A DNA stretch of 64,000 nt, from NCBI RefSeq assembly GCF_036365525.1, contig NC_090392.1:72370345-72434344 (forward strand), read 5' to 3'. This stretch comes from Heterodontus francisci (Eukaryota). A program made the translations under genes and the position numbers. Below the pieces are notes generated by a model that was given only the letters and a program-made list of their open reading frames with translations, did not search any database and was not told the DNA's origin. Of this stretch, positions 22,001 through 51,698 are shown one piece after another (within the stretch, counting starts at the first letter, position 1; each line of letters begins with the position of its first letter).

Positions 22001-22218
22001 ATCTTATCTTCCATCAGACTCCTATGAGTTACTCCAGTGACTTGAACAAACCAAACTATAATCTTTACTAATTATCTAATTCTATATTTACTTTGTATGT
22101 TTGGTAATGAATTGTATGGATGATAATGAGCTCTCTATTCCGTAAATTGTTGTAAATATAATGATTATATACATTTAATTCTCTAGCCTTCACAGTGGTT
22201 TGAGGACCGGACACCATC

Positions 22219-22261
22219 ATGAAGATATTTGCAGTTACTTTGGTACTCCTTGTGGTCAAAG
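22219..22261 (+). CDS. Apolipoprotein-like gene 2 (231 aa), signal-peptide exon MKIFAVTLVLLVVKG
   Basis: TTCACAG acceptor ending at 22195, CATCATG, 43 coding nt, G|GTAAAA phase-1 donor. Confidence 0.9.
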
Positions 22262-24331
22262 GTAAAAAACAAAAACTCTTCAAACTAACACAAAACACAA
22301 TGAACATTGAAAAGAAAACAATACTGTAGAAAATCACAGCAATATACAATATATAACATTGACACTTTCAGTTTGTAGCTTCCATTGCCTGTGTAGTGCA
22401 GGGAGCACATGGCACGATAGATAAGAACAGATGCAATAAAGTACATTACAACACATTTCCTACATCGCTGAGCAGCAGAATGCAAACTCAATTTGTCACA
22501 GCCACCAGATGTCCCAAAGCATTTTACAGCCAATGAAGTGCTTTTTTTGAACTGCAGTCACTGAGCTACATTTCTGTGATCAAACATTTCTCCACATTTT
22601 GCACTATATATCAGCATTCGACAATCCCACCTCAGCACAGAGTGAGCCAGATGCAAACTTAAGCTACCTACAATCTACCCCCATGCATTCATCAGGATGA
22701 AGGATATTAGTGCTGGAGAATGAACATACAAACATACAAATTAGGAGCAGGAGGAGACCCCTCGAGCCTACTCCGTCATTCAACAAGACCATGGCTGATC
22801 TGATTGTAACCTCACATAGCACATTCCTTTCAGTTATCCATTGAGTTTATGATTTAAGCTGCATTGTTAACAATTAATAATTATAGTAATTAATAATAAC
22901 ACAGACACGATGGGCCTGAAGGCTTCCTACTGTTGTAACCATTCTTTGATTCCATTCTATGGGACTACTTCAATAGGAGGAGCAGAAGGTAAACAGAGGC
23001 CTCTCCTCAGGTACTACTTGTACAGCCATCTTAAAATGGCCTTGGTAAGATTATGGGAACAAAGGTCACCTAACATGCGACCCAGTTAGACTGGAGGTGA
23101 TGTCAAATGATTGACTGCCAGAGAACACTCCGTGGGCCTAGCCTAATGCTATGACTTTGATTGACATCTCTAAGTAAAACTAACGTATTAAACTGGAAAT
23201 TATTATATATCACAGATTGTTTGTTTACCAAATTAGGATTATTTTGTGAAGCTGTCCAGATTTAAAGCAAATCTCTTTAATGTGGGTCTTCAGTTTTCCT
23301 TTATGTAAGGTTATCTTCAAAATAAACTGTAGTGAGATTAATTTTTTCTCACAGCTGTGAGGGAGGGAACGCTGCCTAGTCGTTTAGATGAGACTTGAGA
23401 CTGATACCCTGGCTGCTCTGGTAGTGCAAGATCCAGGACACTATCCGTAGAGGGGCTGCAAGTTTTCCCAGTGTCCTGGCCAACATTCCTCTCTGTACCA
23501 TGATCATCCATGCTTCGCATTTTTGGGATCTTGCTGTGCATATGATGGCTGCTTCAAAGTAATTAGTTGCATGCGAAGCACTTTGAGATGTTTCGGTGAG
23601 GCGGACACACTTGCTTATTGTGCTTTAATGTTAGAAATATGGAGCTAGCAGTTGGGTCACAACACTTGCTCTGTGTGACCACGGGCAAGGGAGAGCAAAG
23701 GCTCCTGCTCCTCATTGATATCCAGTACCGTCAGGTGTCTATGGACATCAGGCAAGATAGACTTGTATTTAAATAAATCTTGTCACAACCACCCAAGGCA
23801 TTTCACAGCCCATGAAGTGCTCTTTTGAACTGTAGTCAATGTTATAATGTGAGAAATGTGGCTGCCAATTTACACACAGCAAACTCCCACAAACTGCAAT
23901 GTGATAATGACCAGATCATCTGATTTTGTAATGATGATTAAGGGAGAAATATAAGGCACCACTGAGAAGCTACCCCTGCTGCTCTTCAAAATAGTGCTGT
24001 GGGGTCTGTTACGTTAGTTTAACATCTCATCTGAAAGGCACCACCAGAGTTGCAGCCTTGATTTAAAGGCTCAAGGCCTGGAGTGGGACTTGAACCCACA
24101 GCCTTCTGACTCATAACTAAGAGTGCTATCCACTGAGCCACCGCTAGCACTAGAACTATTATTAGGCTGCAGGCACCCTTCAACCTGTACTGCAGCAAGG
24201 ATCAGGTCTCCAGGGGAGGACACTGAGGGGAAAAAAATATCCAAATTAGTCATGGCATTAGGGAGGTCTTTACAAAAATCATCCATAAAAATAACCACTA
24301 AACAGGTTTTTTTTTCTACGTTCTTTCACAG

Positions 24332-24485
24332 GAATCCAGGGTGGTGTCATCCCCCAGGATGAATCCAAATCCAACCAATCCATGCACTGGCAGCAACCTT
24401 ACTGGGACGTATTCAATATCGGGAGTGACATAGCCAGGGCTGCTTTTGGGGTCTTGGCACAGTCTGAGAAGGTCAGATCAGCTAT
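24332..24485 (+). CDS. Gene 2, coding exon 2 (IQGGVIPQDESKSNQSMHWQQPYWDVFNIGSDIARAAFGVLAQSEKVRSA)
   Basis: TTTCACAG acceptor, 154-nt open exon, AT|GTAAGT phase-2 donor; same phases as gene 1. Confidence 0.9.
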
Positions 24486-24739
24486 GTAAGTATCTAATTA
24501 CCAGCTATTAAAACTATCAAATGAACTAACTTCAGTGTGTAGTTCTACCTGTCTCTCCACCCTTAAGGCACTCCTGACCAAGGGCTGCCTGTCCCAATAT
24601 CTCCTTATGTGGCTTGGGATATGAGTTTGTTTGATAATGCTCCTGTGAAGCAGCTTGTGACATTTTATTCTGTTAAAGGCAGTATATAAATACAAGTTGT
24701 CCTGGTTCTTGTAGTAGTAATATAAGTCAGTAATGTAAG

Positions 24740-27190
24740 TCGTCTTCTTCTTTGGCCTCCTTATCTTTAGAGACAATGGGTAAGCGCCTGGAGGTGGTCA
24801 GTGGTTTGTGAAGCAGCGCCTGGAGTGGCTATAAAGGCCAATTCCAGAGTGGCAGGCTCTTCCACAGGTGCAGCAGAGAAATTTGTTTGTCGGGGCTGTT
24901 ACACAGTTGGCTCTCCCCTTGCGCCTCTGTCTTCTTTCCTGCCAACTACTAAGTCTCTTCGACTTGCCACACTTTAGCCCCGCCTCTATGGTTGCCCGCC
25001 AGCTCTGGCGAACGCTGGCAACTGACTCCCACGACTTGTGATCAATGTCACAGGATTTCATGTCGCGTTTGCAGACGTCTTTAAAGCGAAGACATGGACG
25101 GCCGGTGGGTCTGATACCAGTGGCGAGCTCGCTGTACAATGTGTCTTTGGGGATCCTGCCATCTTCCATGCGGCTCACATGGCCAAGCCATCTCAAGCGC
25201 CGCTGACTCAGTAGTGTGTACAAGCTGGGGATGTTGGCCGCCTCGAGGACTTCTGTGTTGGAGATACGGTCCTGCCGCCTGATGCCAAGTATTCTCCGGA
25301 GGCAGCGAAGATGGAATGAATTGAGACGTCGCTCTTGGCTGACGTACGTTGTCCAGGCCTCGCTGCCATAGAGCAAGGTACTGAGGACACAGGCCTGATA
25401 CACTCGGACTTTTGTGTTCCGTGTCAGTGCGCCATTTTCTCACACTCTCTTGGCCAGTCTGGACATAGCAGTGGAAGCCTTTCCCATGTGCTTGTTGATT
25501 TCTGCATCTAGAGACAGGTTACTGGTGATAGTTGAGCCTAGGTAGGTGAACTCTTGAACCACTTCCAGAGCGTGGTCGCCAATATTGATGGATGGAGCAT
25601 TTCTGACGTCCTGCCCCATGATGTTCGTTTTCTTGAGGCTGATGTTTAGGCCAAATTCATTGCAGGCAGCCGCAAACCTGTCGATGAGACTCTGCAGGCA
25701 CTCTTCAGTGTGAGATGTTAAAGCAGCATCATCAGCAAAGAGGAGTTCCCTGATGAGGACTTTCCGTACTTTGGACTTCGCTCTTAGACGGGCAAGGTTG
25801 AACAACCTGCCCCCTGATCTTGTGTGGAGGAAAATTCCTTCTTCAGAGGACTTGAACGCATGTGAAAGCAGCAGGGAGAAGAAAATCCCAAAAGGTGTGG
25901 GTGCGAGAACACAGCCCTGTTTCACGCCACTCAGGATAGGAAAGGGCTCTGATGAGGAGTCACCATGTTGAATTGTGCCTTTCATATTGTCATGGAATGA
26001 GGTGATGATACTTAGTAGCTTTGGTGGACATCCAATCTTTTCCAGTAGTCTGAAGAGACCACGTCTGCTGACGAGGTCAAAGGCTTTGGTGAGATCAATG
26101 AAAGCAATGTAGAGGGGCATCTGTTGTTCACGGCATTTCTCCTGTATCTGACGAAGGGAGAACAGCATGTCAACGGTCGATCTCTCTGCACGAAAGCCAC
26201 ACTGTGCCTCAGGGTAGACGTGCTCGGCCAGCTTCTGGAGTCTGTTCAGCGCGACTCGAGCAAAGACTTTCCCCACTATGCAGAGCAGGGAGATTCCACG
26301 GTAGTTGTTGCAGTCACCGCGGTCACCTTTGTTTTTATAGAGGGTGATGATATTGGCATCGCGCATGTCCTGGGGTACTGCTCCCTCGTCCCAGCACAGG
26401 CATAGCAGTTCATGTAGTGCTGAGAGTATAGCAGGCTTGGCACTCTTGATTATTTCAGGGGTAATGCTGTCCTTCCCAGGGGCTTTTCCGCTGGCTAGAG
26501 AATCAATGGCATCACTGAGTTCCGATTTGGTTGGCTGTATGTCCAGCTCATCCATGACTGGTAGAGGCTGGGCTGCATTGAGGGCAGTCTCAGTGACAAC
26601 ATTCTCCCTGGAGTACAGTTCTAGGTAGTGCTCAACCCAGCGGTCCATTTGTTTGCGTTGGTCAGTGATTATGTCCCCTGATTTAGATTTGAGGGGGGCG
26701 ATCCTCTTGATGGTTGGCCCAAGAGCTCTCTTAATGCCATCATACATTCCTCTGATGTTTCCGGTGTCTGAGGCCAGCTGAATATGACTGCATAGGTGTT
26801 GCCAGTTGTCGTTTGCGCAGCGCCTGGCTGTTCTTTGTGCAGTGCTTCTGGCTGCTTTAAGTGCTGCGGATGTTAAATCGCTGGGGGCTTTCTTGTAGTT
26901 CAACAGTGCAATGCGCTTAGCGGCTATGACAGGTTCCAGCTCTTCATTATGAGATTGAAACCAGTCTGCATTTCTCTTCGCACTTTTGCTGTAGGTGGTC
27001 AAAGCTGACTCATAGATGGCGTCTCTGATGTGGGCCCACTTGGTCTCAGCATCCCCTGTGGGAGTGTTTTGAAGGGCTGTTACAAGTGTATTTAGAAATT
27101 TTTGGAACAGCTGTGGGTGAGAAATTCTGCTCGTGTTGATGCGCGGGTGGCCCTTCTGCTTGGAATGATGCAATTTCTTTGGTCTGAGTA
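24740..27190 (-). mobile_element. RTE-clade LINE, 5'-truncated, mostly intact RT
   Basis: 629-aa ORF with RT motifs (QCGFR, FIDLTKAFD, GVKQGCVLAP, LLFADD), frameshift near 25440 into a C-terminus with RLRWLGHV and CxxC..SH..C zinc finger; GAA-repeat tail. Confidence 0.93.
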
Positions 27191-27701
27191 GTATAAGTGA
27201 TATAAGGGGGGTGTACACGAGGACTGATTTCCATATCACAAGGAGCAATAGGCAGTCTCTGATTTTCCATCCATTTAAATGAATGAGATTGTGGGCCCAC
27301 AGTTTCCTGACTAGGCTCCCTAAGGACACTGGGAAACCCGATCAGAAATCAGCCCTCAAGCCTGATCACAGTGTGCTCCATTACGCAAGTTCATTCAGAG
27401 TATTTAGCAACTGAAAAACCCCATTAAGTCCAATACGTCCACCCCTTTTCCATACCCAACCTTTTTGCCTCATCTCTCCGCCACTTCTCTCCCAGAAGAA
27501 AATAACCACCTCTTGTACATTTCAATCATTTTCACTGGTAGCATAAACGCTTTTTAAGTGAAAAAGCTCCAGCTGAGTTCCCTCTTATTTCTCGTTTTAA
27601 CATTGCACCCCATAGTGTTTAGCTCCTTCATAAGGAACAAATTTGCCAGTTACAAGTTTGTCAATTTCCCCTCCTAATCATGCAAATTTTAATGTGGTCG
27701 T

Positions 27702-28866
27702 TGTTACGACCAGGTGAGAAAGGTGTCTTGGGGTCTTTTACTGTCTTCACCTGGTCTTATTGTAACAGGATTTAATTTTAAACACACTGTGTTTTGAGTT
27801 CCCCCTTTGGTGGATCCTTGTCATCACTTTCCAATTATAAGGCAAAGAAATGAGCACACCAGGTTTTCTTAGGTTTAAAGAAGAAAAGTGAAATTTATTA
27901 AACTTACTTAAACTCTAATTCGGTTAAAGCCTACAGATATACGACCTGCACACGTGATGCATACACATGCAAATAGGGACAGAAAAGAGCAGAAGAAAAA
28001 TAAAGTAGAAAAATAAAGAGCGGCGCAGTGGCACTGTGGTTAGCCCCGCAGCCTCACAGCTCCAGCGACCCGGGTTCGATTCTGGGTTCTGCCTGTGTGG
28101 AGTTTGCAAGTTCTCCCTGTGACTGCGTGGGTTTCCGTCGGGAGCTCCGGAGGCTTGCAGGTTGATAGGTAAATTGGCCATTATAAATTTCCCCTAGTGT
28201 AGGTCGGTGGTAGGAGAATTGTGGGGATGCGGTAGGAATATGGGATCAATGTAGGATTAGTATAAATGGATGGTTGATGGTCGGCACAGACTCGGTGGGC
28301 CGAAGGGCCTGTTTCAGTGCTGTATCTCTAAATAAAAAATAAATAGAGAGATGCGAGGCAGTCTCTGAAGAGGATTTCTTGTTCCTGTTTGTCTGTTTCC
28401 AGCTCGCTGTAGATTGTAGACAGCTCTTATTTTTCATTGGGGCCCAGTATTCTTCTTAAACCTTGTTCACGTAGGAGACTTTTCTCTCTTTGAGTTCACG
28501 TGTCTTCAATGGGTCTTCTGTTCGGTGAGAAAGAGATGGGAGCAGACAGGAGAGAGGTTTTCTCAGTCCAGGAGCAAACAGCTTCCTGCATTTCTTTCTC
28601 TCAGCAAGTTCAAATTCAAAAAACTTCAACAGTCAATTAGTCATGTGATTAAAACTGGTCTGACCTCCTCTTCTGTGTATTGGGGAAGCAAGGACTGGGT
28701 CCCTTGTTCCAACACTGTCTGCTAGCATGCAAATGTCTTTCCAGTCAGGGGCTTGGCAATTCCTTGTGATAGGCCCTCTTTTCTTCCCAGCCATAATTTT
28801 AAGTTTTAATGTTCATGTGGTGAAATAATGTGTGCCTCCATCTTGGCAGGTGGGGCCTGCATGACA
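27702..28866. mobile_element. Solo LTR (TG...CA) of a Gypsy-like element with an internal SINE insertion
   Basis: Begins TGTTACG, ends CATGACA; no internal ORFs; absent from copy B. Confidence 0.6.
28018..28335 (+). mobile_element. HE1-type tRNA-derived V-SINE
   Basis: tRNA-like head (TGGTTAGC...GGTTCGATTC), V-domain TGTGTGGAGTTTGCAAGTTCTCCC, tail GTGCTGTATCTCTAAA. Confidence 0.85.
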
Positions 28867-29067
28867 TTGCCTTAAAATCAAGGATAGAAGTGCAGCTAAC
28901 TCTGCTCAGAGTAACTCTCTAACAATCAGCATTATCTTTGTTGCTCACTTCACTGACCTCCAAAGAACAATAATATTCTCCCAGCCTCTCCTTATAGGTT
29001 TTCTCAGATATAAACATCAGTAGATTATTATTCTGCATTCTCTGCTATTTTGCTGGTTGTAAACTGT

Positions 29068-31008
29068 GGCTGAGAAATTTGGCTCCGTAGTGTTGGAGGT
29101 TTCCCAGCTGGCCAGATCGGAACACCAAACAGCTGATCCCACTGAACTGACACGTGAATTCTAAACTTAGACTGTGCAGGTCCACAGAACGCATTCTGTC
29201 AGTCACTAAAGACCAGCTATAAGAGGGAGCCCCACTGGCGTCATTTAAAGAGCCAACTATTCAACTTGCAAGAAAGCTGATTTAGACTGAGTTCTGTGAT
29301 TGTAAGCTTTGTGGAAGTACTTTGGAATGTTTTTGGGAGCATTGTGATGAGTTCCTGCATCCTCACAGGGAGGGCAGAGGATGTAGTGAACTGTCCACAC
29401 AAAGGCTCCGACGGATATGGGGACCGCAGTGGCAGTGCTGCTGGGTCTGCAACATGACAGGAAAATGAAGCAGAGGCTGTGGAGAGAGGAAGCTCCACGT
29501 GATGTCCTCAGCTAAGTTGGAGTCGGACTGCTCCAAGCTCCTTGGCAGTGACATAAAGTTGTCTGGCAGGCCTGCCAATGCACCCAACATCTCGTCGTGC
29601 GTCCTGATCAGTGCTCTCCTGTTTGGCACCCATTGAAATCACCAGCTGAATCCCCTGTAGCAGAACTTGTGTGTGACCTTGCCTCTGGTGAGCTGGCACA
29701 TGAACTATCCTTTCCCCCTCGTATGGTTGCAGTACACTCGTGCCCAGTGACTCACTATATGCAGGTCCTGACTAACGTTCACGCTGTGCCAATGGCTGAG
29801 CTGGTGGTTGCGAGTGTCTGATCAATGGTGGGCCTCTTCATCAGTGGTGTGGGGGTTGCTGTGGCTGGGCAGGTGGCAGTTCTTGGGTGAATGAAAGCAA
29901 GAACTCAAATGGCCTCTTTCTGTGCCTTAAACTTTCTATGATTCTAAATGGGGTGAGGGAAGTGGGGTGGGTAGAAAGCAAGAGAATCGATGGTCACACC
30001 ATCTGTGGCTTGTCATCATGCCAGATAGCGGGATGAGGGTGAGTTGAGAAGGGGTATAAGGCAGAAACATACCGTCATCCTCAATGCTCTCAGTGATTCA
30101 GTGATACCACTTACCATGGGCTGTGCAACTAATGATGCAGAGCACCCTGTCCTTCATAGGACTCGGGAGATGCAGGCGTCCTTGTCCCCGACTGGCAGTT
30201 ATGGGCCACCTTGTCCTGCAAGAGAGAGAGAAGAATATCAGTGATTGCGTTGCACTGTGTTTGGGTGATGTACCTGCCAAAGCTGAATGTATTTAGAAGC
30301 AGTGGGAGCTGGGTATGAGGCTGGCATCATTGAAATGTGTGAGGGTGAGGTGGAATATCTGAATGTTAGGCCTGTGTCCTGAGTGCTAGAGGTTGCTGAT
30401 TGGTGAGTGATGGCGGTGTGATGCATTGAGCTGCATGAGCAGTTCACAGTCTGCTGGTAGGAGGTGTCCTTTGAAGATGCATTCACTAACCTTGACCACA
30501 CACATGAGCTCAGGGGACTTATTGCAGCACTGCTGCCAGGTCTTTGGGCCTAGACCCAGCAGTGACCTCCATGGCCACCTGCTCTATTTCCTTCTGAGGG
30601 TTTTCCCTGAGGGACTGCGGCTGCCTTGCAGAAACATCACCTCTCGACCTCCGCCACTAAGACTTGAACCAAGGAGCAGTCTCTTTTTTTCTGGTGCTCC
30701 ATTTGTGTAGCTCCTGCTTGCAGCCAGTGTCAGTGCAGGCAGTCAGCAGCAGCTCACAGTTGCCCTTTAAGAGGGGCAGACTGCCCTTAAAAGGAGCAGG
30801 CTGGCTGCACCACCTGCTATTAGTGCACGCTGCTCAGCCTCCTGCTGAGCGCGTTGGCAGCCAGCCACCTGAGTCTCACTCAGACCAATCAGGTAAATGA
30901 GGAATCAGCACCAAGTTTGCGTGCTGCCTGCCTCAATGGGAATGGACTCAGGCGGGTCATGAATCGCAACCCGCTTGTCCAAAAACAGGTGGGGAACCAA
31001 TTTTAGCT
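29068..31008 (-). mobile_element. Harbinger-type element remnant with degraded Myb/SANT ORF; shorter paralogous copy ~49720-50970
   Basis: Minus-strand residues like EQVAMEI.ARS.APR..QQCRN resemble the Harbinger Myb/SANT DNA-binding protein. Confidence 0.6.
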
Positions 31009-31290
31009 CTGTGTCCTTTTATGTATTTGCATCACTCAAGGAGTGGGAAAAGCAGAGCAATGAATCGATAATAGCATTGAATAATCAGATGGTATTGCTG
31101 CATTTAAGGGGGGCTTGCTGCATATTTGAGGGAGAAGGGAATGAAGGTTATGGGGATGGGTGGGAGGCGTCTCATGTGGAGTATAAGTACTGGCAGAGAG
31201 TTCCGAATGACTTTTTTTAGTGCTGCAGATTCTATGTAAATCTATGTAAAATATGAAAACTTTGCTACATCCTTTTCTCCCCCTCCAAAG

Positions 31291-31789
31291 GGCAAACCTA
31301 TCAGGTGTGAATAAAGTTCTCAATGACGTTATCGAAAATTCAATGAATGATCTTGCCACATTGTCAAACCAACTCAAGTGGAATGGCGTCCCCATCACTA
31401 CTCATATTTTAAACAAGACCGAACTTTGGAATGAGAAGCTAAACTCTGCTGGCCAACAAATACAAGAAGCGGTTGGCAATGAAACGTCTGTCGCCATTCA
31501 CATGAAACTGATGCAGATCCAGAAAGAGATCAATCAGTACACTCAGAACCTGAGCCTCATAGCTGAACGTTTCAATCAGACATATGAAAGTGCCACTCAA
31601 CAATTGGAAGAATGGAACAAGAGAGCCTCTCCTTACACTGATGCAGTCCGTACAAAAATAACTGAACAGGTTCAAGAACTGAGGAACTATCTTACACCTG
31701 TGATTCATGAGAGCAAGGAGGCATTCAAAAAATTAGAAGACCTGGTAATGAAATCAAATGAAGCACCGGTGGACACAGATGCACCTTAA
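31291..31789 (+). CDS. Gene 2, last coding exon (amphipathic helical apolipoprotein-like domain)
   Basis: Pyrimidine tract + CCAAAG acceptor in frame with ORF 31253-31789; SPYTDAVRTKI and LTPVIHESKE apolipoprotein-type proline repeats; spliced CDS 696 nt. Confidence 0.9.
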
Positions 31790-34700
31790 GCGAATCCTTG
31801 ATGGGTTCCAACACCAATGAGGTTAATTAAGGATAGAGAATATAAATTAAACTTCAAACCAATCATAATGTAACCAGCCCCCATTCTGTATTGGTATTCA
31901 TAATTAATATAAACGTATTCCAGTTACTGTGGCATAAAATGGCATGAACTAAGTAGTTTTTAAAAAAAAATTAAAACCAAAATTTTTCAGTGAATGAATG
32001 GCCTCATTGACACTTCCTGGTGGCCCCCTGGATGTTTGTTTTACCTGTAATATCATAACACAGACAATCCATTCAGCCAATCTGATGATGTCATATTATT
32101 CCCCCAATCAAATTAAATCACAAAAACTATGAATCTGGAACCAATGACATATGAGTAGACTAATAACAAAATCTTAGTAACTAATAATATTAAAGCAGGA
32201 TCTTACCTGTCCTTGGATTTTGTCTGTAATTGGATGTTCAAGCAGCTCGGGCTTTTGAAGTGATGCAGCAGGCAGGGGAAACATAAGAACATCAGAAATA
32301 GGAGCAGGAGTAGACGATATGGCCCATCGAACCTGCTCTGCCATTCAATGCGATCATTGGCTTCAACTCCACTTTCTTGGCCACGCCCCATATCCCTTGA
32401 TTCCCTGAGAGACCAAAAATTTGTCTATCTCAGCTTTAAATAAACAATGGAGCATCCACAACCCTCTGGGGTAGAGAATCCAAAGATTCACAACCCTTTG
32501 AGTGAAGAAATTTCTCCTCATCGCAGTCCTCAATGATCGGCCTTTACCCTGAGACTGTGCCACCGTGTTGACTCATCAAACCCTTCTGTACAGAGATCAG
32601 AAAATATAGAGTACACTGGCTGCAAAGGCACAGAGGGGGAGTAGCTGAAATGCACCAGTAGTTATTGCCCCTTCTTACAGAGTGGGCAATATAAAGACAC
32701 AGTCAGACAGGCAAATGGCAGCTTACAGTAGTGTCCTCTCGAGCCTGAAAGATAAAGATAACTCACTGAATGATAAACGTTTGTCCGAAATTCCCATCAG
32801 ATGATAGAAATGAAAATATGTAACAACTTGAGATGCCGAGACTTTGGTAACTGCATTTATGTGTTAACATTAATAGGAATGTTGAATTCTTGCAATATCA
32901 TTAAATGTCACAAATTGATTTTGAATGTGCTCAATAGCTTATATACTGTATTCATTGTATTACACTAGAATAAAAAAAGAAAGGCTTATATTTGTATAGT
33001 GTCTTACATGACATCCCAAAGCTCTTGACAGCTAATTACATACTTCTTTCAAGTGTAGTTGCTGTTGTATTGTAAGAAATGCAGCAGCCAATTTGCACAC
33101 AGCAAGCTTCCACAAACAGCAATTTGATAATGAGCAGATAATCCGTTTTTGTGATGTTGATTTAGGGATAAATATTGCGCCAGGACACCAGGGATAACTA
33201 AAAACAAAATACTGCAGATGCTGGAAATCTGAAATAAAAACAGAAAGTGCTGGAAATGCACAGCAGGTCTGGCAGCATCTGTGGAGAGAGAAGCAGGTCT
33301 GTGACCTTTCATCAGAACTCTCTTCTTCGAAATAGTGCCCTTGGATCTTTAACATCCACCTGAGGGGGATGACAGGGCCTTGGTTTAATGTCTCATTGGA
33401 ACGATGGCACCTCTGACAGTGCAGCACTCCCTTAGTACTAAACTGGAGCGTCAGCCTTGATTGCAGAAGTTGAACCCAGAACCAACTGACTTAGGGGTGA
33501 GAGTGCATGGTTGACACACTTACATGCAAATCCTCCAAAATTCTGCTACCTGTATCCTAATTCACACCAATTCCCGTTCATCCCCCCCACCCCTCCCCCC
33601 CCCCCACCCCCCCCTCCACCCCACCGTGCTCACTGAGCTTCATTCGCTCCCCGTCAGGGAACATGCCAATTTTAAAATTCTCGGGCCGAATTTTACCCAT
33701 GAAGGCGGGAAAAAGTCGGGAATGTGTTCGGATGCTGAACCCACCTTTGGTGGGAAACTGATTAAAATCAACATTTTCACATGGGTGAGCCCTTAATTGG
33801 CTTGGAGATGGGTTCCCTGTCCAACTAAGGGCAGTGGGCAGGCTTCCAAAACTGGAGGGTGATTCAGAGGCCTTCCAGCTTCAGAGAAATACCCTGCTGC
33901 AGCACGAGGTAAATAACTGGGAGGGTGCTTCAACAAGGAGGTGCCTCTCAGCCACTTTCATAAAATCTTTAATAAAAAAAAAAATACAAAAAGCAGCCAG
34001 GCCACCACTGTGAAGGGGGCTTGGTGCTGGGGGTAGGAGGAGCCCCTCTACAGAGTGGGCTTTGGCTGTACACCCCTCTTAGCCAGGCAGGGAGGGCCTG
34101 TAGGTCTGCCAGGAGTGCTGGCACCCCAGCCTGCTGCTGGATGCCCACCTCGAGGCAGCTGAACTGCCCCCATCGCAGTGGGAAATTGGAGGCTGAGCGG
34201 AAAATCACAGTCGGCCTCCGTTACCGACCTTTAACAAAGCTCCTAGCAGCCCAATTCCCTGCCTGCCTTGGTGGGGCAGGTGGCCTTCCCGGACCTTGAA
34301 ACCACGTCGGCCAAAATGACCGATGTTGGGAATGGGCTTGGGAAGCCAGCACACTGACCAGCCTTGTAATTGTCAGACCCCGTCTGCCTCTATTACCAGC
34401 GTCAGATGGGCCTGAAAATTCAACCCCTCTTTGTTTTCACATCCCTCCATGGCCTCACACCTTCCTAACACTGCAACCTTCTGCCCGACAACCTTCCACG
34501 ATCCCTGCGCTTCTCCAATTTTGGCCTCTGGAGCATTGGTAATTTAAATCACTCCACCATTGGCGGCTGTGCCTTCAACTGCCTGGGCACTAAGCTCTGG
34601 AATTCCCTCCCTAAACCTCTTTGTCTCTTTCTCTCCCCTTTTTAAGATGCCACTTAAAACCAAGCTCTTTGGCCAAGCTTTTGGTCATCTGTCCACATGT

Positions 34701-35029
34701 TCTTATGTGGCTTGGTGTTCAATTCTGTCTAACAATGCTTCTAAAAGCACCTTGTGATGTTTTACTACATTGAAGGCACTATATAAATGCAAGTTGTTGT
34801 TGTGTGGATATTGAACAGAATGGTATCGGGTTTATCTGTGATGCTCTCCATGACCAGATAGACTGTGGTGTGTCTGCCCATATTGATGTTGGAAGTCATT
34901 TGGGTGATATACTGATTGCCTGTTTGTGCATGTAACTTTATCCTACTCCAACCAAATCCAATCTCAACATTCTTCTCAGGCACCACATTGAGGTCAGGAA
35001 AACTCCTATGATGGGTTTAATTCATGATT

Positions 35030-35343
35030 CCAAGCACAGTTCTGTTTACAACAACTTTACAGCCTGACATTTAAAATTAACGACAGTCATAACTGACGTT
35101 TCCATTGAATTATATTGCATTTAGTGCACAACATCAGCTGTTAACATTGTTTCCACACAGAAACACTAAAAGGTTAAAAGCGTTCATCCTTCAACCTAAT
35201 AAAAACAACAAAAAGAACAAAATCTGTAGTTTACTGTTCTTTGCCTCATCAGATGGAATAGATAAGAGCAGGTTAATAAATTTCAGAGTTTGGAGGTTGG
35301 GAAGTCAGTCACAACAAAAAGCAAGAGGATTAAACTCAGGCAG
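35030..35343 (+). promoter_or_regulatory. Orphan duplicate of the gene 4 promoter and non-coding exon 1 at the end of copy A
   Basis: Matches 54480-54810, including the CAG|GTAAGA donor; homology to gene 4 intron 1 stops at 35413. Confidence 0.7.
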
Positions 35344-36709
35344 GTAAGAAATGTATCAGGATTAATCAACAGTAAGGAAAATAGTTAAAAAGCAGCAGTT
35401 TTCTTTGGTGGTGTACCTCACCTCCTCACTCTTCTCCTATAGTCAATAGTATTAAAAAACTGAAGCTTCAACAGCACCTTCCAAACCCGCGACCTTTAAC
35501 AGCTAGAAAAAAAAGGGAAGCAGGCACCTGGGGACACCACCAGCTACAAATTCCCCTGCAAGTTGCACACCATCCTAGCTTGGAACTATATCGCCGTTCT
35601 TTCATCGTCACTGGGTCAAAATCCTGAGAGCTCGCTCCCTATAATTCCACTGTGGGAGTACCTTCACCACACGGAGAGCAAAAGTTTAAGAAGGCAGCTC
35701 ACCACCACCTTCTCAAGGACACTAATGGATGGGTGGTAAAAGCTGACCTTGCCAGTGAAGCTCAAATTCCGTAAACGAGTAATAAAAACAAACCCAATCA
35801 CTGTTTTTTAAAGGATCCTCCTTTAGAAAAATGTTTTTACACAGCCAAATGCAAGCCAAAAATCTGTTTATTTTCCTTTATACCAGTAGCGGAAAAGCAT
35901 CTGTTTGGCACTAATTTGATTTCTTTCACACTTCACTCAAGACATTCTCATGCGAAGCAGTGCTGGCAAGACCCCGTGAAGAACTGCAGGACTGCCAAGC
36001 TCACGGAGTATGACAGGAGAAGAGGAAGATGAAGTGACATCTTCTCAGGATTTTCATATATTCTCCCATTCCAACTCAAAGATTTGATGATGTGAAAGAG
36101 AGTAAGCAATTCTTGGCAACTACTATCTTGTCAGACATGTGTACAAGCTTCCAGCACAATTGACTCTCTCACTCAAAGATCACATAAACTGGCCAGAAGC
36201 CACTTGAACATTCATCGTGTGACATCCCTTCCGGTTGAGAAATGCAGTAGAATTAATGTGTGGAGCCCTGATGGTCATATGGGTTCCATGTCTTAACTCT
36301 TGGAAGCCTGACAGCTGGTGAAAGCTCCGTGTTGTCGCCGGTTGGTGTCTCCTTACCGCAGGGGAAGTGGTAACAGTGGTTCTGGCAAACATGGTGCCAG
36401 CCACTTCCTTTATGATTGCAGATGGCTTATCTGACTGATTCTGTTGGGTTGGCTGAGAAGGAAATGTGTTGCATTGGGGTTTAAGGCCATTGGGATCCTC
36501 ACCCTCATCGAAAGAACCATCTCAGCCCTTGGAAGTATTTGCAGGTTAGCACACAGCAAGTGGCATAGCTCATTCACTGCCCCTTCCATGAACTGGGGGT
36601 GACAAATAAAAGGTTCCTCTGATATACCCAGGTAGAAGTGACGTGATCTGCCAATGTAAGTCCTTGGGTATTGATAGGAGCACACTTCTTGCGTGAGGTG
36701 ACATTAAGT

Positions 36710-43749: not shown

Positions 43750-43996
43750 GACAGGGCTGTTTGCAGCAAATTTACAGTCAGCCACAGATATAATTGTCCA
43801 CAGTGGTAACTAGCTTACTGTTTAATTAGATTAGAGAGACATGGAACTGGTAAATTTGTTCTGTTTGCCAGAAGCAAACACGGAGAGGTCAAAAATCTTG
43901 ATAATTGATTCTACGTTTCCATCAAGTTAATAAACCTCAGAAATTTGAGGATCAGAAAGCAGCCGCACTGTGGGCAGGAGGACTAATTTGACCCAG
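43750..43996 (+). promoter_or_regulatory. Putative promoter and non-coding exon 1 of gene 3 (lacks the paired-GATA cassette)
   Basis: Homologous to 18740-19051 with a 65-bp deletion; donor CAG|GTAAGA after 43996. Confidence 0.6.
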
Positions 43997-44423
43997 GTAA
44001 GAGATGCTTCTTCAGTTTCCCGAGATTTCAACAGCAGTGCATGAAAACCAGTAAAATTACAAGAATATGTTCTTCAGTGACAGTTCAATGAAAAACTTTT
44101 TGATATCCAATTTTGTTCAGGTCCCCAAATGGCTGTGTGGTTAAGTTCCCAATATGGCATTGAGCCACATAGGCTGGGAGTTAAATTGATTTAATTTATG
44201 CCCAAATGTAAAAGGACTGAGTGCTAATCCGCTGAATCACATAGACCTAATGCTGAGCACTTTCTCATCCAGATACTGCAGCAATATATAAATATGCTTG
44301 TATATGTTTTTGTTGGAATTATTGTCACCAAGCATTAATACATTTATTGGTGTTAGGCATGAAAAGGAGCAACCTTTAGACATCAGTTAAAAAATTATAT
44401 TTCCCTACATTTAATATTAGTAA

Positions 44424-45599
44424 CTAGCAGAGACCCGCAAAACATTTGTGGTCAAATCAGTACCTTTATTGCAATTGCACTTCTTTAAATACAGGATTTC
44501 TAGTTATTCTTTCACCAAAAACTTCAACAGAATCAAAACTTCTCACTCTGTAAAAAGCTCCATGAAGCTGTCCATGTGTAAAAACACACCTCGGAATAGA
44601 AATACAAATTTTGTCAAGCGTCCGGCCTTGTCACTTATTTATAGTCAAGGAATATGAAAATCTAATTGGGAAATATTTTCTCTTGAGTTGAAAAGGCGGG
44701 TTTACATCTGCTGGGCTCAATATTATTTGAGGAATAAACAGTTTATTTCCTCGAAATCTGCCTGTTACAATTTCAGCATCTAACATTAAAGAAAAGAGTT
44801 TCCTAACTACCAGTCTTGTTCCATTACAAAGTCCTTGTTTAGGATTCAAGTTTTGTAGCAACATTAAAACTGCTGCTTCCTTGAGACTATGTTTGTGTGG
44901 TGGTATGCCCATTGGAGTTAGACCATGCAGAAACTCTGGAGGGTACAGACTGTTATCATCTTCTTTGTCTATAGAATCAACACTGATGTATTCTGTTAAT
45001 TCATCTGACAGCTTTTCATTCAAATCTGGGGAATCTTCATTTTTAGCACAAAGAATAGCTTTCAAATAATAAGTTGTACCAAATAATTGTCCCTGCCGTT
45101 TTGCCACACTTAACCAATTCCATCATCTTATTCACCCCTCCCATGCCACCCCCATGCTATCCCCTCCCTCCAATGACATCCCCATCCCCATCCCATGCCA
45201 TTCCATCTTTCCCATGCCATCCCTCTCATGCCATCCACATCCCATTTCTTCTATCTCTTTCATGTCATCCCCATCGGGCTCTTTCCATCCCCATCCATCT
45301 CATCAATCCCATCCTATCCCTCATGGAACCAATCTCTCCAGCCCGGGTGTTTTTGCTGTTGGGTTCCTGTTACTATCCGCTGTTTTTATTCTCCACCAAA
45401 CTCCCCCACCCTGCTGCTGCCACCGCCACCAGCCATTGGCTGCCACACGTGCATCACGCACTCCAGTCCTCCACTTGCCCCTTGTGCCTCTGCATGCACC
45501 AGGCACCGTCCACCGAATAAACCCACCAACAGAGTGCTCTTTAAACTGACCAATCAAAACAGTCCAGACAGACAAAAACAAAAATATTATTATTATAGA
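44424..45599 (-). mobile_element. Non-autonomous Helitron carrying a PIF1-like helicase fragment
   Basis: Minus strand: 5' TCTATAATAATAA, 3' hairpin GACCACAAA..TTTGCGGGTC then CTAG, inserted between A and T; ORF 44631-45107 has GLCNGTRL and FPIRFSYSLTINK; empty site in copy A (~20660). Confidence 0.92.
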
Positions 45600-46510
45600 T
45601 TGCAGAAAATGAATGGGTTAATTGTAGATTTTTTTTATATTTAAAAGCCGGCTGTATGTATTCTTTTTACAATAATTCTTGTGTCATTATCTATGGCCTG
45701 TACAACAGACACAGTTTCATTAAAAATGACTGTTGTTGAGAGGGTTCTAATGTGCAGTGACGAATGTCCAATGAAAAGAGACAAAATAACTTCCTGACAA
45801 TTTGAGAAGGTTTGAAGTGATCACACTAGAACCATCCCCCTGATTTGGGGGCAGAGTGGAAGTTTCATGAGACACGAGCATTTTTGGAAGAAGAGAAGAC
45901 CAGCAGGAATTTGAAAGATTAGCAGCTTATTCACCTCAATAGATGATGGTAGGCAGTTCTAGGGAGTGAACACCTTTCCCAAAGTATTCTCACCCAGTGT
46001 CAGCTACATGCATCCAGTTCAGTACAGAACCGTAAACTGCACAAAATATCCTTTTACTCTGCTCCAGTCTTGGGAAAAACACTCTCTCCTGTTTTAGTGT
46101 GAATATTTCCACTTCTCACACCAGTCTATCCCATGGCCTGTCTGAAGAAGATTGCTAATTTTTGTCCGACCTTCAAACTCCTAGGAAGAGGAGCACTATC
46201 CAGGTAGTCTACATCCATACTGATCAGTTGCAAATAGTAGACCTTGTAGAGTTATTACTGACTAGAACTGAAGAGCAGTTAGGTTAATAGGTTAAACTAA
46301 TGATATGACACAAGGTAAAAATTGTGACGAAGAAGGGAAGCCATTTATCCGCAGCCCAATAGAACTGTGGAATAAGTTACCATGAAAAGACTTGAAAATA
46401 GGGGAGATGCTTTTGGTACATTGGGTTGTCGTCTAGTAGCTGGTAGGCTACCTCTTTCACATAAAAACCGAATAACCAACAGAGAGGAACAGAGAGCAAG
46501 ACTTTCACAT

Positions 46511-46903
46511 TAAAGCATGGCTACCCGACCTGAACCCAACCAGACCCGAAGACATTTGTTGGGTTCGGGTCAGGTCGGGTCTCTTTTCCGGGTCCGGCAT
46601 TCGGGCTCTGGTCAGCTCGGGCTGGACACGGACACGGTGCTGCCTTGCTCAGGGAGGGAAGTATTCTTCAAAATTTGAACATTCAGCCGGGACATCAAGA
46701 CGGGGATCGTGCTGCCAGAGTGGAGGATCACAACATTTGGAAAAGGTAGAGCACAATAACCTGTTTAATTTAATTAACTTTATTACAATAGTCGGGTCGG
46801 GTCAGGTCGGGCTCGGGAAAAAAATCAATGGACTCGGGCCTGGGTCGGGTCGGGTTGGATGTGGTCGGGTCGGGTTTCAATTTCACACCCGGGTGGGCCT
46901 TTA
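46511..46903. mobile_element. hAT-like MITE with CCCGA/TCGGG subterminal repeats
   Basis: TAAAG...CTTTA ends, 8-bp TSD-like TTTCACAT / TTTCATAC, empty site in copy A (~21577). Confidence 0.75.
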
Positions 46904-47594
46904 TTTCATACTATCAGTCCAGGGTAGATTTGGACTCAAATTCTACAGTAAGCAGTCAGTCGCATTTACTCAAACTCAAATGAAGGAAATAGGTAAAAAT
47001 AGGGAAAAATTCCAAAAAGATGTCAGAAACTCTAAATATTATTAATGCGTTCATGTATTTTTACCTATTTGCATTCTCTAAATTTTTTTTAAAATTGGGA
47101 GTCCAAGGAACAATGGTGGAGGCTGACAGCAAGCGTTACAAGGTTAAACAAAAGAAATTGGGGATTAGGTGAGACCACGCTTGAGTTTTATAAGCCTGAT
47201 TGCAGGAAGAGGCAAAGACTTGGGAAAGAGGAAGTTCCACAGTTTTGCTGTGCTGCGAAAGAAATATCTGGAAAAATTAAAAGGGTGAGCAGAAAAGTAA
47301 ACATTAAAATTGATTATAAGAATGAGATGGCAGGGAGAATAGAAATGGGTCTGTCAACTACCCAGGATCTGGGAAAATCTTATCTTCCATCAGACACCTA
47401 TGAGTTACTCCAGTGACTTGAACAAACCAAACTATAATCTTCACTACTTATCTAATTCTATATTTACTTTGTATGTTTGGTAATGAATTGTATGGATGAT
47501 AATGAGCTCTCTATTCCGTAAATTGTTGTAAATATAATGATTATATACATTTAATTCTCTAGCCTTCACAGTGGTTTGAGGACCGGACACCATC

Positions 47595-47637
47595 ATGAAG
47601 ATATTTGCAGTTACTTTGGTACTCCTTGTGGTCAAAG
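47595..47637 (+). CDS. Apolipoprotein-like gene 3 (213 aa), signal-peptide exon MKIFAVTLVLLVVK (identical to gene 2)
   Basis: Acceptor ending at 47571, 43 coding nt, G|GTAAAA donor. Confidence 0.9.
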
Positions 47638-49096
47638 GTAAAAAACAAAAACTCTTCAAACTAACACAAAACACAATGAACATTGAAAAGAAAACAATAC
47701 TGTAGAAAATCACAGCAATATACAATATATAACATTGACACTTTCAGTTTGTAGCTTCCATTGCCTGTGTAGTGCAGGGAGCACATGGCACTATAGATAA
47801 GAACATATGCAATGCAGTACATTACAACAACTATGTCCTAGATTGCTGAGTAGCAGAATGCAAGCTCAATTCTTCCATAGATGAGGTACATTAGTGCTGG
47901 GATCAAACATTTCTCCACATTTTGCACTATATATCAGCATTCGGCAATCCCACCTCAGCACAGAGTGAGCCAGATGCAAACTTAAGCTACCTACAATCTA
48001 CCCCCATGCATTCATCAGGATGAAGGACATTAGTGCTGGAGAATGGAGCACATTCCTTTCAATTATCCATTGAGTTTATGATTGAAGCTGTATTGCTAAA
48101 TGGGATGAATTCAATGGAAGCATCTCTCTATAGGAGGAGCAGAAAGTGAACAAAGGCCCTTCCTCAAGCACATCTTGGTGCAGCCAGCTTAAAATGGCCT
48201 TGGTAAGATTATGGAAACCAGGGTCACCTAACATGTGACCCAGTTGGACTGGAGGTGATGTCAAATGATCTACTGCTAGACCACACTCTGTGGGCCAAGA
48301 CAATGCCATGGCTTTGATTGACATCTATAGATATAAACAAACACATTAAGAGGAAAATGTTATAAATTACTGATTTTTTCCCCCCCAAATTGGTTATTTT
48401 TATGAAATGGACCAGAATTAAAGCAAATCTCTTTAACGTGGGTCTTCAATTCTTCTTCATGTAAGGGCATCTTCAAAATGAATTGCCGTGGGATTCATTT
48501 TTGATGCTGCTGTGAGGGAATGCTGCCTTGTCCTTTAGATAAGACATTAGACTGACACCCTGGCTATTTGGGTAGTGCAAGATCCCAGGACAGTATCCAA
48601 AGAAAGGCTGCAAGTTTTTCCAGTGTCCTGGCCAACAGTTCTCCCTCCAGCATGCTTCTTCAAAACATTCATTCTTCATTCGTTCTCCTCATTGCTGTTT
48701 TTGGGATCTTGCTGTGCACAGCATGGCTGCCTCAAAGTAATTAGCTGCATGTGAAGGGCTTTGTGATGTTTTGATGAGGTGAACATGCTTGTTTATTATG
48801 TTTGATGTTAGAAATGTGTGACTAGCACTTGGGTCACAACACTTGATCCGAGTAACCCTGGGCAAGGGAGAGCAAGAGCTTCTGCTCCTCATTGCTATAC
48901 AGCACCCTCGGCTGCAAGGTGTGTCTATGGACATCAACCTGTCCTACAGCAAGGATCATGTCTTCAGGAGAGGAGACTGAGGGAAAAAATACACAAATTA
49001 ATAATGGCATCAGGGAGGTAGGTACTCATACCATCTTTATAATAATCATGCATAAAAAGAAGCACTAATCAGTTTTTTTTCTATGTTCTTGCCCAG

Positions 49097-49250
49097 TAAT
49101 CCAGGGTGGTGTCATCCCTCGGGATGAATCCATATCCAACAAATCTATACACTTGCAGCTAAACTATCTGAAGTTATTAGAAAAAGGATTTGATGCAGCT
49201 GGAGTTGTTCTTAGTGCCATTGCACAGACTGAGGTGGCCAAATCAGCTTT
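49097..49250 (+). CDS. Gene 3, coding exon 2 (IQGGVIPRDESISNKSIHLQLNYLKLLEKGFDAAGVVLSAIAQTEVAKSA)
   Basis: CCCAG acceptor, 154-nt open exon of the same length as in gene 2, TT|GTAAGT donor. Confidence 0.9.
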
Positions 49251-51253
49251 GTAAGTAGTTAACTACCAGCTATTAAAACTATCAAGCTATTTTCAAGTAG
49301 TTCTACCTTTGTCTCCTTCTTTTAAAATGCTCTTTAAAACCTACATCTTTGACCAAGGGGTACCTGTCCCAATATGAACTTATATGGCTCGGTATCAATT
49401 TTTCTTTGATAATGCTCCTGTGAAGCAACTTGTGACATTTAACTAATGTAAAGGCAGGATATAAATGCAAGTTGCCCTGTTTGTTATAATTGTAATTTAA
49501 GTCAGTTGGGGGATTCTTTTTTATTCATTCTGTGGATGTGGGCGTCGCTGGCCAGGCCAGCATTTATTGCCCATCCCTAAGTGCCCTTGAGAAGGTGGTG
49601 GTGAGCTGCCTTCTTGAATCATTGCAGTCCTTGGGGTGGAGGTGCACCAACAGTGCTGTTACACAAGTGGGCTGATTCCCCACTCATGTGGAACACGAGG
49701 CAGGAGATCATGCCCTCCGTAGCTTTGGAAGCTTCCCAACTGGCCAGATCAGGACAACAAGCAGCTGATCCCACTGAATTGACACGCAAATTCTAAACTT
49801 AGACAGTGCAGGTCCACAGAACACATTCTGTCAGTCATCAAAGACCAGCTATACGAGGGACCTCCAGTAGCGTCATTTAAAGGGCCAACCATCCAACTTG
49901 CAAAAAAGTATATTTAGACTGAGTTCTGTGGTTGTAAACTTTGTGGACATACTGTGGAGTGTTTTTGGGAGTGTTGCGATGAGTTACTGGATGTGGCATG
50001 GAAGGCCAAGCCTCCGACAGGTACGGGGGCTGCAGTTGCAGTGCTACTGGGTCTGTTTCCCAAATGGCCAGATCTGGCTGATTTGATGCGCAAATTCCAA
50101 ATGTGGACTGCATTCTCTGGTCACTCATCAAAGAACATACATTTGGCTACAAGAGGGAGTATCAGACCAAGTGACGGGGCCTCTTCATCTTCCTCCTTGG
50201 GCAGCTGTGGCTGGGCAGGTGGCATTAGTTGGGTGTGTGAAAGTAGAAAGTAGAAAATCAGAAAAGAGAGGTCGGAGCTGTGTGTGAGGCTGGCATCATT
50301 GGAATGTGTGTGAGGGTGAGGTGGAATATCTGAACGTTAGGCCTGAGTCCTGAGTGCTAGGGCTGCTGATGGTTGAGTGATAGGAGTGTGATACATTGGA
50401 CAGTGGAAGATGTTGAAGGTGCGATGGGTAGGAGATGTCCTTTGAAGATGCATTCACTGACCTGGACCACACGCATGAATTCAGGGAACGTATTGCGGCA
50501 CTGCTGTGAGCTCCTCGGGGCTAGACTCCGGGCAATGATCTCCATGGCCACCTGCTCTCATTTCCTTCTGAGGGTTTACCATGAGGGACTGCGGCTCCCT
50601 CGCAGAAACATCACCTCTCGACCTTCAGCACCAAGGAGCCCTCTCTCTTCTCTGGTGCTCCATTTGTCCAGCTCCTACATGCAGCCAGTGTCAGTGCAGG
50701 CAGTCAGCAGCAGCTCACAGTTGCCCTTTAAGAGAGGCAGACTGCCTTTAAAAGGAGCAGGCTGGCTGCACCACCTGCTATTAGTGCACGCTGCTCAGCC
50801 TCCTGCTGAGTGCGTTGGCAGCCAGCCACCTGAGTCTCATTCAGACCAATCAGGTAAATGAGGAGTCAGCACCAAGTTTGCGTGCTACCTGCCTCAATGG
50901 GAACGGGCTTGGGTGGGTCATGAATCACAACCCACTTGTCCAAAACCAGGTGGGGAACCATTTTTAGCTCTGGGTCCTTTTGTGTATTTGCATCACTCAA
51001 GGAGTGGGAAAAGCAGAGCAATGAATAGATAATAGCATTGAATAATCAGATGGTTTTGCTGCATTTAAGGGAGGCTTGCTGCATATTTGAGGGAGAAGGG
51101 AATAAAGGGTATGGGGCAGGGTGGGAGGCGTCTCGTGCGGAGTATAAACACTGGCATAGAGTTCCGAAAGACTTGTTTCAGTGCTGTAGATTCTATGCAA
51201 GTTTATGTAAATTGTCCAGACTTTGTAATATCTTTTTTTTTCCCTCTACAAAG

Positions 51254-51698
51254 GACGTACCTACCAGGTATTTCTAAATTTCACGGTGTACTCATTGGCA
51301 AACCAGTGCACGAGCTATCATTATTGACACAAGAACTCAAGTGGAAGGGGATCCCCATCAGAAATTATATTTCTAACCAGACCAGGATAATCTATGTTGC
51401 TGAACAGTTACATGAAATGATGGGCAAAGAAATGTCTGCTGCACTTATTCCGAAGCTGGATCAGGTCCGCCATGGTCTCCAGCATTACAGTAGGAACCTG
51501 AGCCTCATAGCTAATCGTTTTGATCAGACATTCAAGGGTGTTGCTCACAAATTGGAGAAATGGTACAAGAGGTCCACTCCTTACACTGACAAAATATATC
51601 AACTATTTCAAAAACTGAGCAACTACCTTCAACCTGCATTTCATAAGACCAAGGAAGGATTGAAAAAATTGTTAACTAAATGGAGTGAAGCAACATGA
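51254..51698 (+). CDS. Gene 3, last coding exon (cationic amphipathic apolipoprotein-like domain)
   Basis: CAAAG acceptor in frame with ORF 51087-51698; aligns to gene 2 (LKW.G.PI, NLSLIA.RF.QT, PYTD, L.NYL.P); spliced CDS 642 nt. Confidence 0.9.

Follow-up and report, generated by a model that had tools for sequence, protein, structure and literature searches.

Divergent mature exons within a mosaic of near-identical DNA in tandem apolipoprotein-like genes of Heterodontus francisci

A 64,000-nucleotide (nt) stretch of the 6.0-Gb genome of Heterodontus francisci (contig NC_090392.1, positions 72370345-72434344; hereafter the window) carries a cluster of apolipoprotein-like genes on its plus strand, in the order gene 1 (apoA-I type), gene 2, an orphan promoter, gene 3 and gene 4. 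Genes 2 and 3 appear to be intact tandem paralogs of a shark-and-skate apolipoprotein-like family whose products are predicted to be secreted and to bind lipid. The exons encoding their mature parts are more divergent than the non-coding DNA around them, and their signal-peptide exons lie in a long tract of near identity. We lean slightly towards a proposal in which gene conversion likely re-homogenised the non-coding DNA and the signal exon, with selection likely keeping the mature exons apart and accelerating gene 3.

A divergence peak on the mature exons

We first note that both genes are well supported as gene models. They share intron phases 1 and 2 with gene 1, which served as the reference for gene structure, and use GT-AG at all splice sites; the coding exons measure 43/154/499 nt in gene 2, 43/154/445 nt in gene 3 and 43/151/598 nt in gene 1. 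The lengths of 231 and 213 amino acids (aa) given in a preliminary description of this DNA hold. Both products equal RefSeq proteins: gene 2 encodes XP_067910118.1 ('apolipoprotein A-IV-like [Heterodontus francisci]'), and the last exon of gene 3 is a 100% match to XP_067910121.1 ('uncharacterized protein'). Contigs of run X1 contain the complete last exon of gene 2 and cover the exons of gene 3 little or not at all, a contrast that, coming from contigs, is not evidence of absence or of expression level. In both genes, a conserved upstream TATA-like box and donor, together with an acceptor before the ATG, would add a predicted fourth exon.

The two duplicated units were compared over 22 segments, only alignable DNA being counted. 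The background pool comprises 12 of these 22 segments (4121 non-coding sites) and leaves out six low-divergence segments, one 51-nt piece, the signal exon and the two mature exons; the split between low and background segments was made after seeing the data. The twelve background segments are 10-24% divergent (pooled 16.6%, Kimura two-parameter distance (K2P) 0.19), and the six other non-coding segments are nearly identical, at 0.9, 1.4, 2.0, 4.2, 5.8 and 5.8%. Against the 16.6% background, the middle coding exon (exon 3) is 30% divergent (K2P 0.39; binomial p=5e-5) and the last one (exon 4) 31% (K2P 0.40; p=2e-13). The same peak is visible in 50-nt windows, with 5, 23 and 16 differences in exon 3 as compared to 6-8 before and 8-14 after it, and 12-21 differences in exon 4 as compared to 0-7 in most flanking windows.

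A recount of the middle exon returned the figures of the preliminary description, namely 46/154 nt different, replacements in 28/52 codons and only 6 silent changes. The identity of the signal exons (0/43 differences) and the roughly 40% protein identity of the last exon (61/147 aligned residues, 41%, with indels that are all in-frame) were likewise confirmed. The low divergence reported at the start of the intron following the middle exon, about 3 differences in about 35 nt, is exact as a count (3/35) but is a local low: ungapped, it rises to 7/40 and 14/50, and the aligned intron part differs at 44/221 sites (20%).

That the mature exons are more divergent than the introns is thus correct, but their synonymous divergence (dS) is raised as well, to 0.35-0.41, with a non-synonymous divergence (dN) of 0.39-0.45. 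A fixed dS of 0.19 can be rejected (p=0.0006), as can one of 0.23 (p=0.009). Silent changes are found in 18 of the 78 conserved codons, against 14% in simulations at dS 0.19 (P=0.018), and this count fits a dS of 0.38 (P=0.50). CpG decay was rejected as a source of the high dS, as it accounts for 2/18 silent changes vs 73/531 changes in introns. Since exon dS is about twice the intron distance, part of the gap between exons and introns reflects homogenised introns and not fast exons; the exons look older than the introns, and much of the apparent speed of the exons is likely due to introns made younger.

The near-identical tracts (Table 1) run through intron and repeat DNA, so that protein constraint cannot explain them, and gene conversion, their standard cause, is very probably responsible. 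The identity around the signal exon spans 500 nt, mostly intron, and the earlier reading of the conserved signal peptide as a constraint of the effector type is replaced by a probable conversion tract. The near-identical 3' flanks also noted earlier (6/686 differences) are part of another long tract. In this 3' tract, the paralogs differ at 4/650 sites. Run X10, from a different organism, supplies two contigs (depth 3-4, possibly with errors, and with an inferred copy assignment) that differ from gene 3 at 20/~655 sites, 16 without the 4 paralog sites (Fisher p=0.001-0.011 for between-species vs between-paralog differences). Fewer differences between paralogs than between species hint at conversion after the species split, and suggest that conversion in the 3' tract post-dates the split from the run X10 organism.

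Selection, drift and other readings of the peak

Over the gene pair, dN/dS is 0.95 by counting (bootstrap 0.66-1.37) and 1.12-1.26 by likelihood, and the number of replacements equals the neutral count (109 vs 105). Several properties are retained beyond neutral expectation: there are 0 stop codons vs 10.5 expected, 77% of the changed sites stay within their hydrophobic or polar class as compared to 62% under neutrality (P=0.0007), and the helical moment is maintained as well (P=0.03). As radical changes are depleted, an average dN/dS of 1 needs some class of changes above 1; same-class changes have a dN/dS of 1.32-1.72 and class-changing ones of 0.59-0.86. Measured against the Heptranchias relative, 48 changes are unique to gene 3 and 23 to gene 2 (p=0.003), and two other outgroups give 38/19 and 27/12. 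The corresponding tree branches are 0.88 (gene 3) and 0.35 (gene 2) long. A branch test, which assumes equal silent rates, includes two protein-only outgroups and was run alongside several other tests, assigns gene 3 a dN/dS of 1.62-1.69 (p=0.028-0.040) and gene 2 one of 0.83-0.85, the two being unequal at p~0.001. The positive selection proposed for both genes in the preliminary description is therefore suggested for the gene 3 branch only. The case against that description is half made: exon dS does exceed intron divergence, but dN/dS does not fall below 1, and genes 2 and 3 are not each the ortholog of a different named apolipoprotein. Overall, these data are suggestive of a very loose constraint, with directional selection probably acting on gene 3 and conversion of the mature exons probably being selected against, and we regard selection as a more probable cause of the exon peak than drift.

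Besides the assumptions of the branch test and the depth of the run X10 contigs, a number of results weigh against this interpretation. Pairwise dN/dS differs from 1 in no setting (p=0.28-0.95), and on the gene 2/3 pair the site model M2a is no better than M1a (p=0.80, F1x4). Differences per codon are homogeneous, with 60/79/42/6 codons carrying 0/1/2/3 changes, and the excess of same-class dN/dS over 1 reaches p<0.05 in no more than 3 of the 6 settings. Fourfold sites (7/32, 22%) are not above the intron background (p=0.47), the silent excess sitting at two- and threefold sites (11/44). Between species, the gene 3 exons are not faster than intron pieces (17/586 vs 12/454, p=0.85). This comparison uses a gene 3 relative in run X6, represented by a spliced contig (record 15; RNA by the tool's guess) that joins both mature exons; 10 of its 14 changed codons are non-synonymous, for a dN/dS of 0.82-1.06. 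A gene 2 relative, available as protein only, differs at 7/231 residues. Finally, the charge shift of gene 3 was rejected as proof of selection, as it lies within neutral simulation (P=0.21; 21 vs 12 sites, p=0.16), and a catshark member of the family is also basic (isoelectric point (pI) 9.3).

Relaxed constraint would account for several of these results. It supposes an old duplication (true distance ~0.38) after which only the helix pattern and an open frame mattered, so that the exons drifted neutrally; conversion reduced the distance of the non-coding DNA, and the exons escaped it solely by having grown too different to convert. Such a history agrees with dN close to dS, with the fit of a single rate class, with an ortholog dN/dS of ~1, and with a count of silent changes that matches simulation at 0.38 and not at 0.19 and that CpG decay does not explain. 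A 4-residue gap that gene 3, unlike gene 2, has in common with other galeomorphs also hints at an old split. The depletion of radical changes, which requires some class above 1, and the twofold faster rate of gene 3 are in conflict with it; in addition, the peak follows the borders of two separate exons, which a chance escape from conversion does not predict. We consider this history possible but rather unlikely.

An arms race of secreted effectors, driven by microbes, parasites or reproduction, would instead make the duplication as young as the introns (K 0.19), with replacements accumulating at ~2.3 times the neutral rate in both copies (dN 0.43 / 0.19). Spread over 18 kb, twelve non-coding segments, the orphan promoter among them, do lie at K 0.11-0.30 (pooled 0.19), and fourfold sites are at the intron level. 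The family has undergone repeated duplication and strong divergence (14-58% identity of mature members); moreover, extracts of published work describe antibacterial apolipoproteins of fish and lamprey (PMC7431520, PMC2866484) and a nurse-shark plasma apolipoprotein that responds to immunisation (PMC9207270). This scenario is nevertheless improbable, given the rejection of a dS of 0.19 or 0.23, the gene 2 branch at 0.85, the lack of hypervariable sites and of a cysteine frame (0 Cys), and the conserved signal peptide, for which conversion probably accounts. That the near-identical tracts are assembly or polishing artefacts, with only the exon-intron contrast being real, is highly improbable: the assembly is a single one and 99% tracts between neighbours can come from mis-polishing, but the tracts hold scattered differences (7/500, 6/686) and grade into 2%, 4% and 6% tracts, and the exon peak over the 16.6% background is independent of them.

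Apolipoprotein affiliation, relatives and neighbourhood

Pfam PF01442 matches the gene 2 product at 38.7 bits (E 1e-9), under the curated cut-off of 90, and gives no hit with gene 3, so that the domain check suggested in the preliminary description gives a match for one gene only, below threshold; among 15 proteins scanned, 6 match at E<0.001 and none reach the cut-off. The best PDB match is human apoA-IV (E=4.5e-12), and the family profile matches apoA-IV at 3e-10, which still supports homology despite the sub-cut-off Pfam scores. The description of the products as apolipoprotein-like, yet not a recognised named apolipoprotein, is thus upheld. Mean hydrophobic moments are 0.37 and 0.39 for genes 2 and 3 (z=4.9 each over shuffles; z=5.1 for gene 1). 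Prolines stand at positions 180, 202 and 225 in gene 2 and, after a 4-residue gap, at 175 and 193 in gene 3; gene 1 has four successive 22-residue proline spacings and scores 134.9 bits with PF01442, above the cut-off. Gene 2 is ~25% identical to the last exon of gene 1. The gene 3 product has a net charge of +12, a pI of 9.8 and three N-glycosylation sequons, gene 2 has six sequons, and neither contains Cys. The AlphaFold model is all-helical but unreliable (predicted local distance difference test 41, predicted template modelling (TM) score 0.23); the best Atlas matches are apoA-IV and apoA-I, all structure matches having TM<0.5 by query. From the exon layout, the amphipathic pattern and the homology, we predict with good confidence that the products are secreted exchangeable apolipoproteins that would coat lipid surfaces via amphipathic helices.

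Two named classes were considered and rejected. ApoA-I is defined by regular repeats, a Pfam score above cut-off and ~260 aa, which hold for gene 1 and not for genes 2 and 3. ApoA-IV proper is a long, repeat-rich chain of about 350-420 aa, and the 231 and 213 aa compare to 396 aa, and to 353-424 aa in Atlas clusters; an extract of PMC6854765 states that apoA-IV has lost intron 1 and has three exons. Being too short and under the Pfam cut-off, the gene 2/3 family ought to be kept apart from apoA-IV.

When 1.84 billion representatives were searched, 16 matched, 13 of them apolipoprotein-like; P0012, P0014 and P0015 proved to be unrelated repeat proteins and were set aside. With a second search added, the named members belong to Heptranchias, Pristiophorus, Cetorhinus, two Scyliorhinus, two Chiloscyllium and Rhinoraja, most of them 'uncharacterized', and the sole bony-fish match is a weak bichir apoA-I-like protein. 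The Heptranchias member shares 58% identity with gene 2, above the 45% of gene 3. Mature members of different species or copies share 14-58% identity; Chiloscyllium punctatum has two copies that are 29% identical, Rhinoraja has three copies, and congeneric bamboo-shark proteins differ at 29/210 residues, 1 of them within the first 30. Members have at most one cysteine, are mostly acidic, and carry a conserved Trp near residue 96 and 2-6 sequons at recurring places (1 in gene 1, 0 in the bichir protein). The 4-residue gap is common to gene 3 and other galeomorph rows and is not found in gene 2, Heptranchias, Pristiophorus or Rhinoraja P0008.

In trees built without full-length apoA-IV rows, genes 2 and 3 and seven other rows form a clade (97/97), and gene 3 groups with those seven at only 62/60 (82/78 in a larger tree). 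A clade of genes 2 and 3 is not rejected (approximately unbiased test, p-AU 0.30), so the trees are compatible with both groupings and establish neither. Of the 18 rows, 12 entered the test tree; three gene-4-type rows, two truncated skate rows and a near-duplicate of gene 2 were omitted. A search for a shark substitution rate usable for dating found none. The truncated rows, P0013 and P0022 of Rhinoraja longicauda, lack the C-terminus (160 and 165 aa) and are 75% identical, with identical signal and tail and dissimilar middle parts, which may represent a conversion mosaic of the same kind in a skate. Another row, P0004 of Pristiophorus japonicus (420 aa), is a database model that fuses gene-2-type and gene-4-type proteins with a second signal peptide inside; it probably arose when neighbouring genes were merged during annotation, and thereby supports an identical gene order in that species.

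The family seems to be undescribed, and was found here only in sharks and skates. A literature search, which left most subscription journals outside, returned no description of it; six accession or locus tags of the family had no mention in papers, and the supplement of a catshark semen proteome held no match. The extracts of PMC8923501 and PMC13701976 mention only apoA-I and apoB, and that of a vertebrate survey gives only apoA-I and A-IV for cartilaginous fishes (PMC6854765).

In a search of the genome for more copies, 2 of 56 scored candidates matched, and 180 kb of flanks held no further copy except gene 4. The remaining coding exons of gene 4 lie in the downstream flank (piece L007, 3336-3429 and 5858-6306). 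This gene represents a separate lineage; it shares 46-52% identity with proteins of Heptranchias and Pristiophorus, and 12-16% with genes 2/3 in the mature part. The orphan copy of its promoter and first exon, downstream of which a search for coding remains found none, suggests that a gene-4-type copy was formerly present in the duplicated unit and has since lost its coding exons. Farther out, POU2AF2 (Pfam) lies ~70 kb downstream (L018, 2194-9122). Exons ~30 kb upstream (L006, 4732-8698), for which Pfam and PDB gave no name, are presumably SIK3-like; SIK3 adjoins APOA1 in mammals.

Mobile elements are also present in the window. Repeat pairs at 13606-14533 / 35804-36709 and 36712-37537 / 39138-39965 are each 89-90% identical, with frames that we take to be transposase-like and reverse-transcriptase-like, respectively. 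A 163-codon minus-strand frame at 44634-45122, inserted in the predicted first intron of gene 3, resembles what we assume to be a Helitron-type helicase fragment.

Table 1. Features of the apolipoprotein-like cluster (positions in the window)
Feature	Position	Strand	Basis or remark
Gene 1, apoA-I-type, 263 aa	2371..6534 (coding exons 2371-2413, 4845-4995, 5937-6534)	+	Pfam PF01442, translation
Duplicated unit carrying gene 2	17334..32975	+	Counterpart ~42218-52955; collinear self-BLAST blocks
Gene 2 predicted TATA-like box and non-coding first exon	18983..19051 (donor GT at 19052)	+	Conserved with genes 3 and 4; sequence prediction
Near-identical tract around gene 2 signal exon and both flanking intron parts	21926..22430	+	7/500 differences to 47303-47806; p=9e-30 vs 16.6% background; very probably converted recently
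Gene 2, 231 aa	Coding exons 22219-22261, 24332-24485, 31291-31789	+	Gene model
Gene 2 signal-peptide exon	22219..22261	+	
Gene 2 middle coding exon	24332..24485	+	vs gene 3: 5/50 differences in first 50 nt, 39/100 in next 100
Insertion in intron 3 of gene 2 that gene 3 lacks; presumably a LINE-type (long interspersed nuclear element) reverse transcriptase	24801..27341	-	Long minus-strand open reading frames; self-alignment gap
Older, probably converted intron tract	30701..31150	+	26/450 differences to 50662-51111
Gene 2 last coding exon, amphipathic helices	31291..31789	+	
Near-identical 3' tract, includes interspersed repeat	31983..32677	+	6/686 differences to 51904-52600
Orphan copy of gene 4 promoter and first exon, between genes 2 and 3	34897..35413	+	74/451 differences to 54347-54883
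Gene 3 predicted TATA-like box and non-coding first exon	43928..43996 (donor GT at 43997)	+	Sequence prediction
Gene 3, 213 aa	Coding exons 47595-47637, 49097-49250, 51254-51698	+	Gene model
Gene 3 signal-peptide exon, identical to that of gene 2	47595..47637	+	
Gene 3 middle coding exon	49097..49250	+	Run X6 contig (record 15) spans exon and continues straight into last exon
Gene 3 last coding exon; in-frame deletions of 5 + 4 codons, shorter C-terminus, basic product	51254..51698	+	
Gene 4 signal exon (apolipoprotein-like, 194 aa, 4 sequons)	57607..57649	+	Remaining coding exons past window end

Possible functions and comparison with known systems

The shared promoter-type and signal sequences predict a similar routing of both products. 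The likeliest functional change, which we offer as a tentative guess by analogy, is that gene 2 would keep an ancestral acidic, glycosylated lipoprotein-type role and that gene 3 would move to anionic lipid surfaces such as microbial membranes or lipopolysaccharide, to which its basic face would be suited. Going further, an elasmobranch branch of short glycosylated apolipoproteins might act in innate defence and turn over through repeated duplication, with gene 3 selected from an acidic glycoprotein into a cationic membrane-active protein whose signal and upstream DNA are kept matched to those of gene 2 by conversion; this would be an arms race like that of apoL, arising independently from the apoA cluster, and we find it doubtful. 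If gene 3 were membrane-active, it would be a new elasmobranch immune effector. A peak of divergence under conversion is a known process and the family is what seems new: the cluster holds at least two further lineages (gene 2/3 type and gene 4 type), whose relatives are spread over sharks and skates, and the pair lends itself to testing, in a clean natural setting, how genes diverge under conversion. It also carries a caution, as identical signal peptides and a low intron distance can mimic a toxin-like signature of selection.

Conotoxin- and defensin-type precursors combine a conserved signal with a hypervariable mature part. Genes 2 and 3 resemble them in their identical signal and divergent mature region, and differ in having no cysteine frame, a long helical protein, a pairwise dN/dS of ~1 and a signal identity that continues through 450 nt of intron. 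The likeness to the exchangeable apolipoproteins apoA-I/A-IV/A-V/E (PF01442) extends to the 43-nt signal exon, the ~150-nt middle exon, the intron phases and the amphipathic helices. Unlike these, genes 2/3 are short (213-231 aa), have one or two 22-residue proline spacings and sub-cut-off or absent Pfam matches, and belong to a family with 2-6 sequons and the conserved Trp near residue 96.

Among fishes, the zebrafish apoA-IV paralogs are likewise lineage-specific apolipoprotein duplicates; in the extract of PMC4348566, three apoA-IVb copies sit on very short branches and their expression is interpreted as partitioned, whereas genes 2/3 have a 40% identical mature part and share near-identical upstream DNA. 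The antibacterial plasma proteins lamprey LAL2 and teleost apoA-I/A-II are also amphipathic, secreted and ~190-260 aa long according to extracts of PMC7431520 and PMC2866484, and may serve as a model for a possible action of the cationic gene 3 product; the named matches of the family searches include no lamprey row that would link them by sequence. The nurse-shark plasma apolipoprotein that shifts after immunisation is named A-I in the legend and A-IV in the discussion of PMC9207270, as extracted.

A parallel to the proposed history is the 'peak of divergence' of red/green opsins under gene conversion, described by the Teshima-Innan model (extract of PMC3924837). The peak of genes 2/3 covers the whole mature region (~60% of residues changed) where that of the opsins covers a few sites, and most of the intron DNA of genes 2/3 is no longer converted. 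In common with the opsins, they are tandem paralogs with homogenised introns and divergent exons, and their exon ortholog (97%) is far closer than the paralog, the relative in run X6 differing at 17/586 nt vs ~31% between genes 2 and 3.

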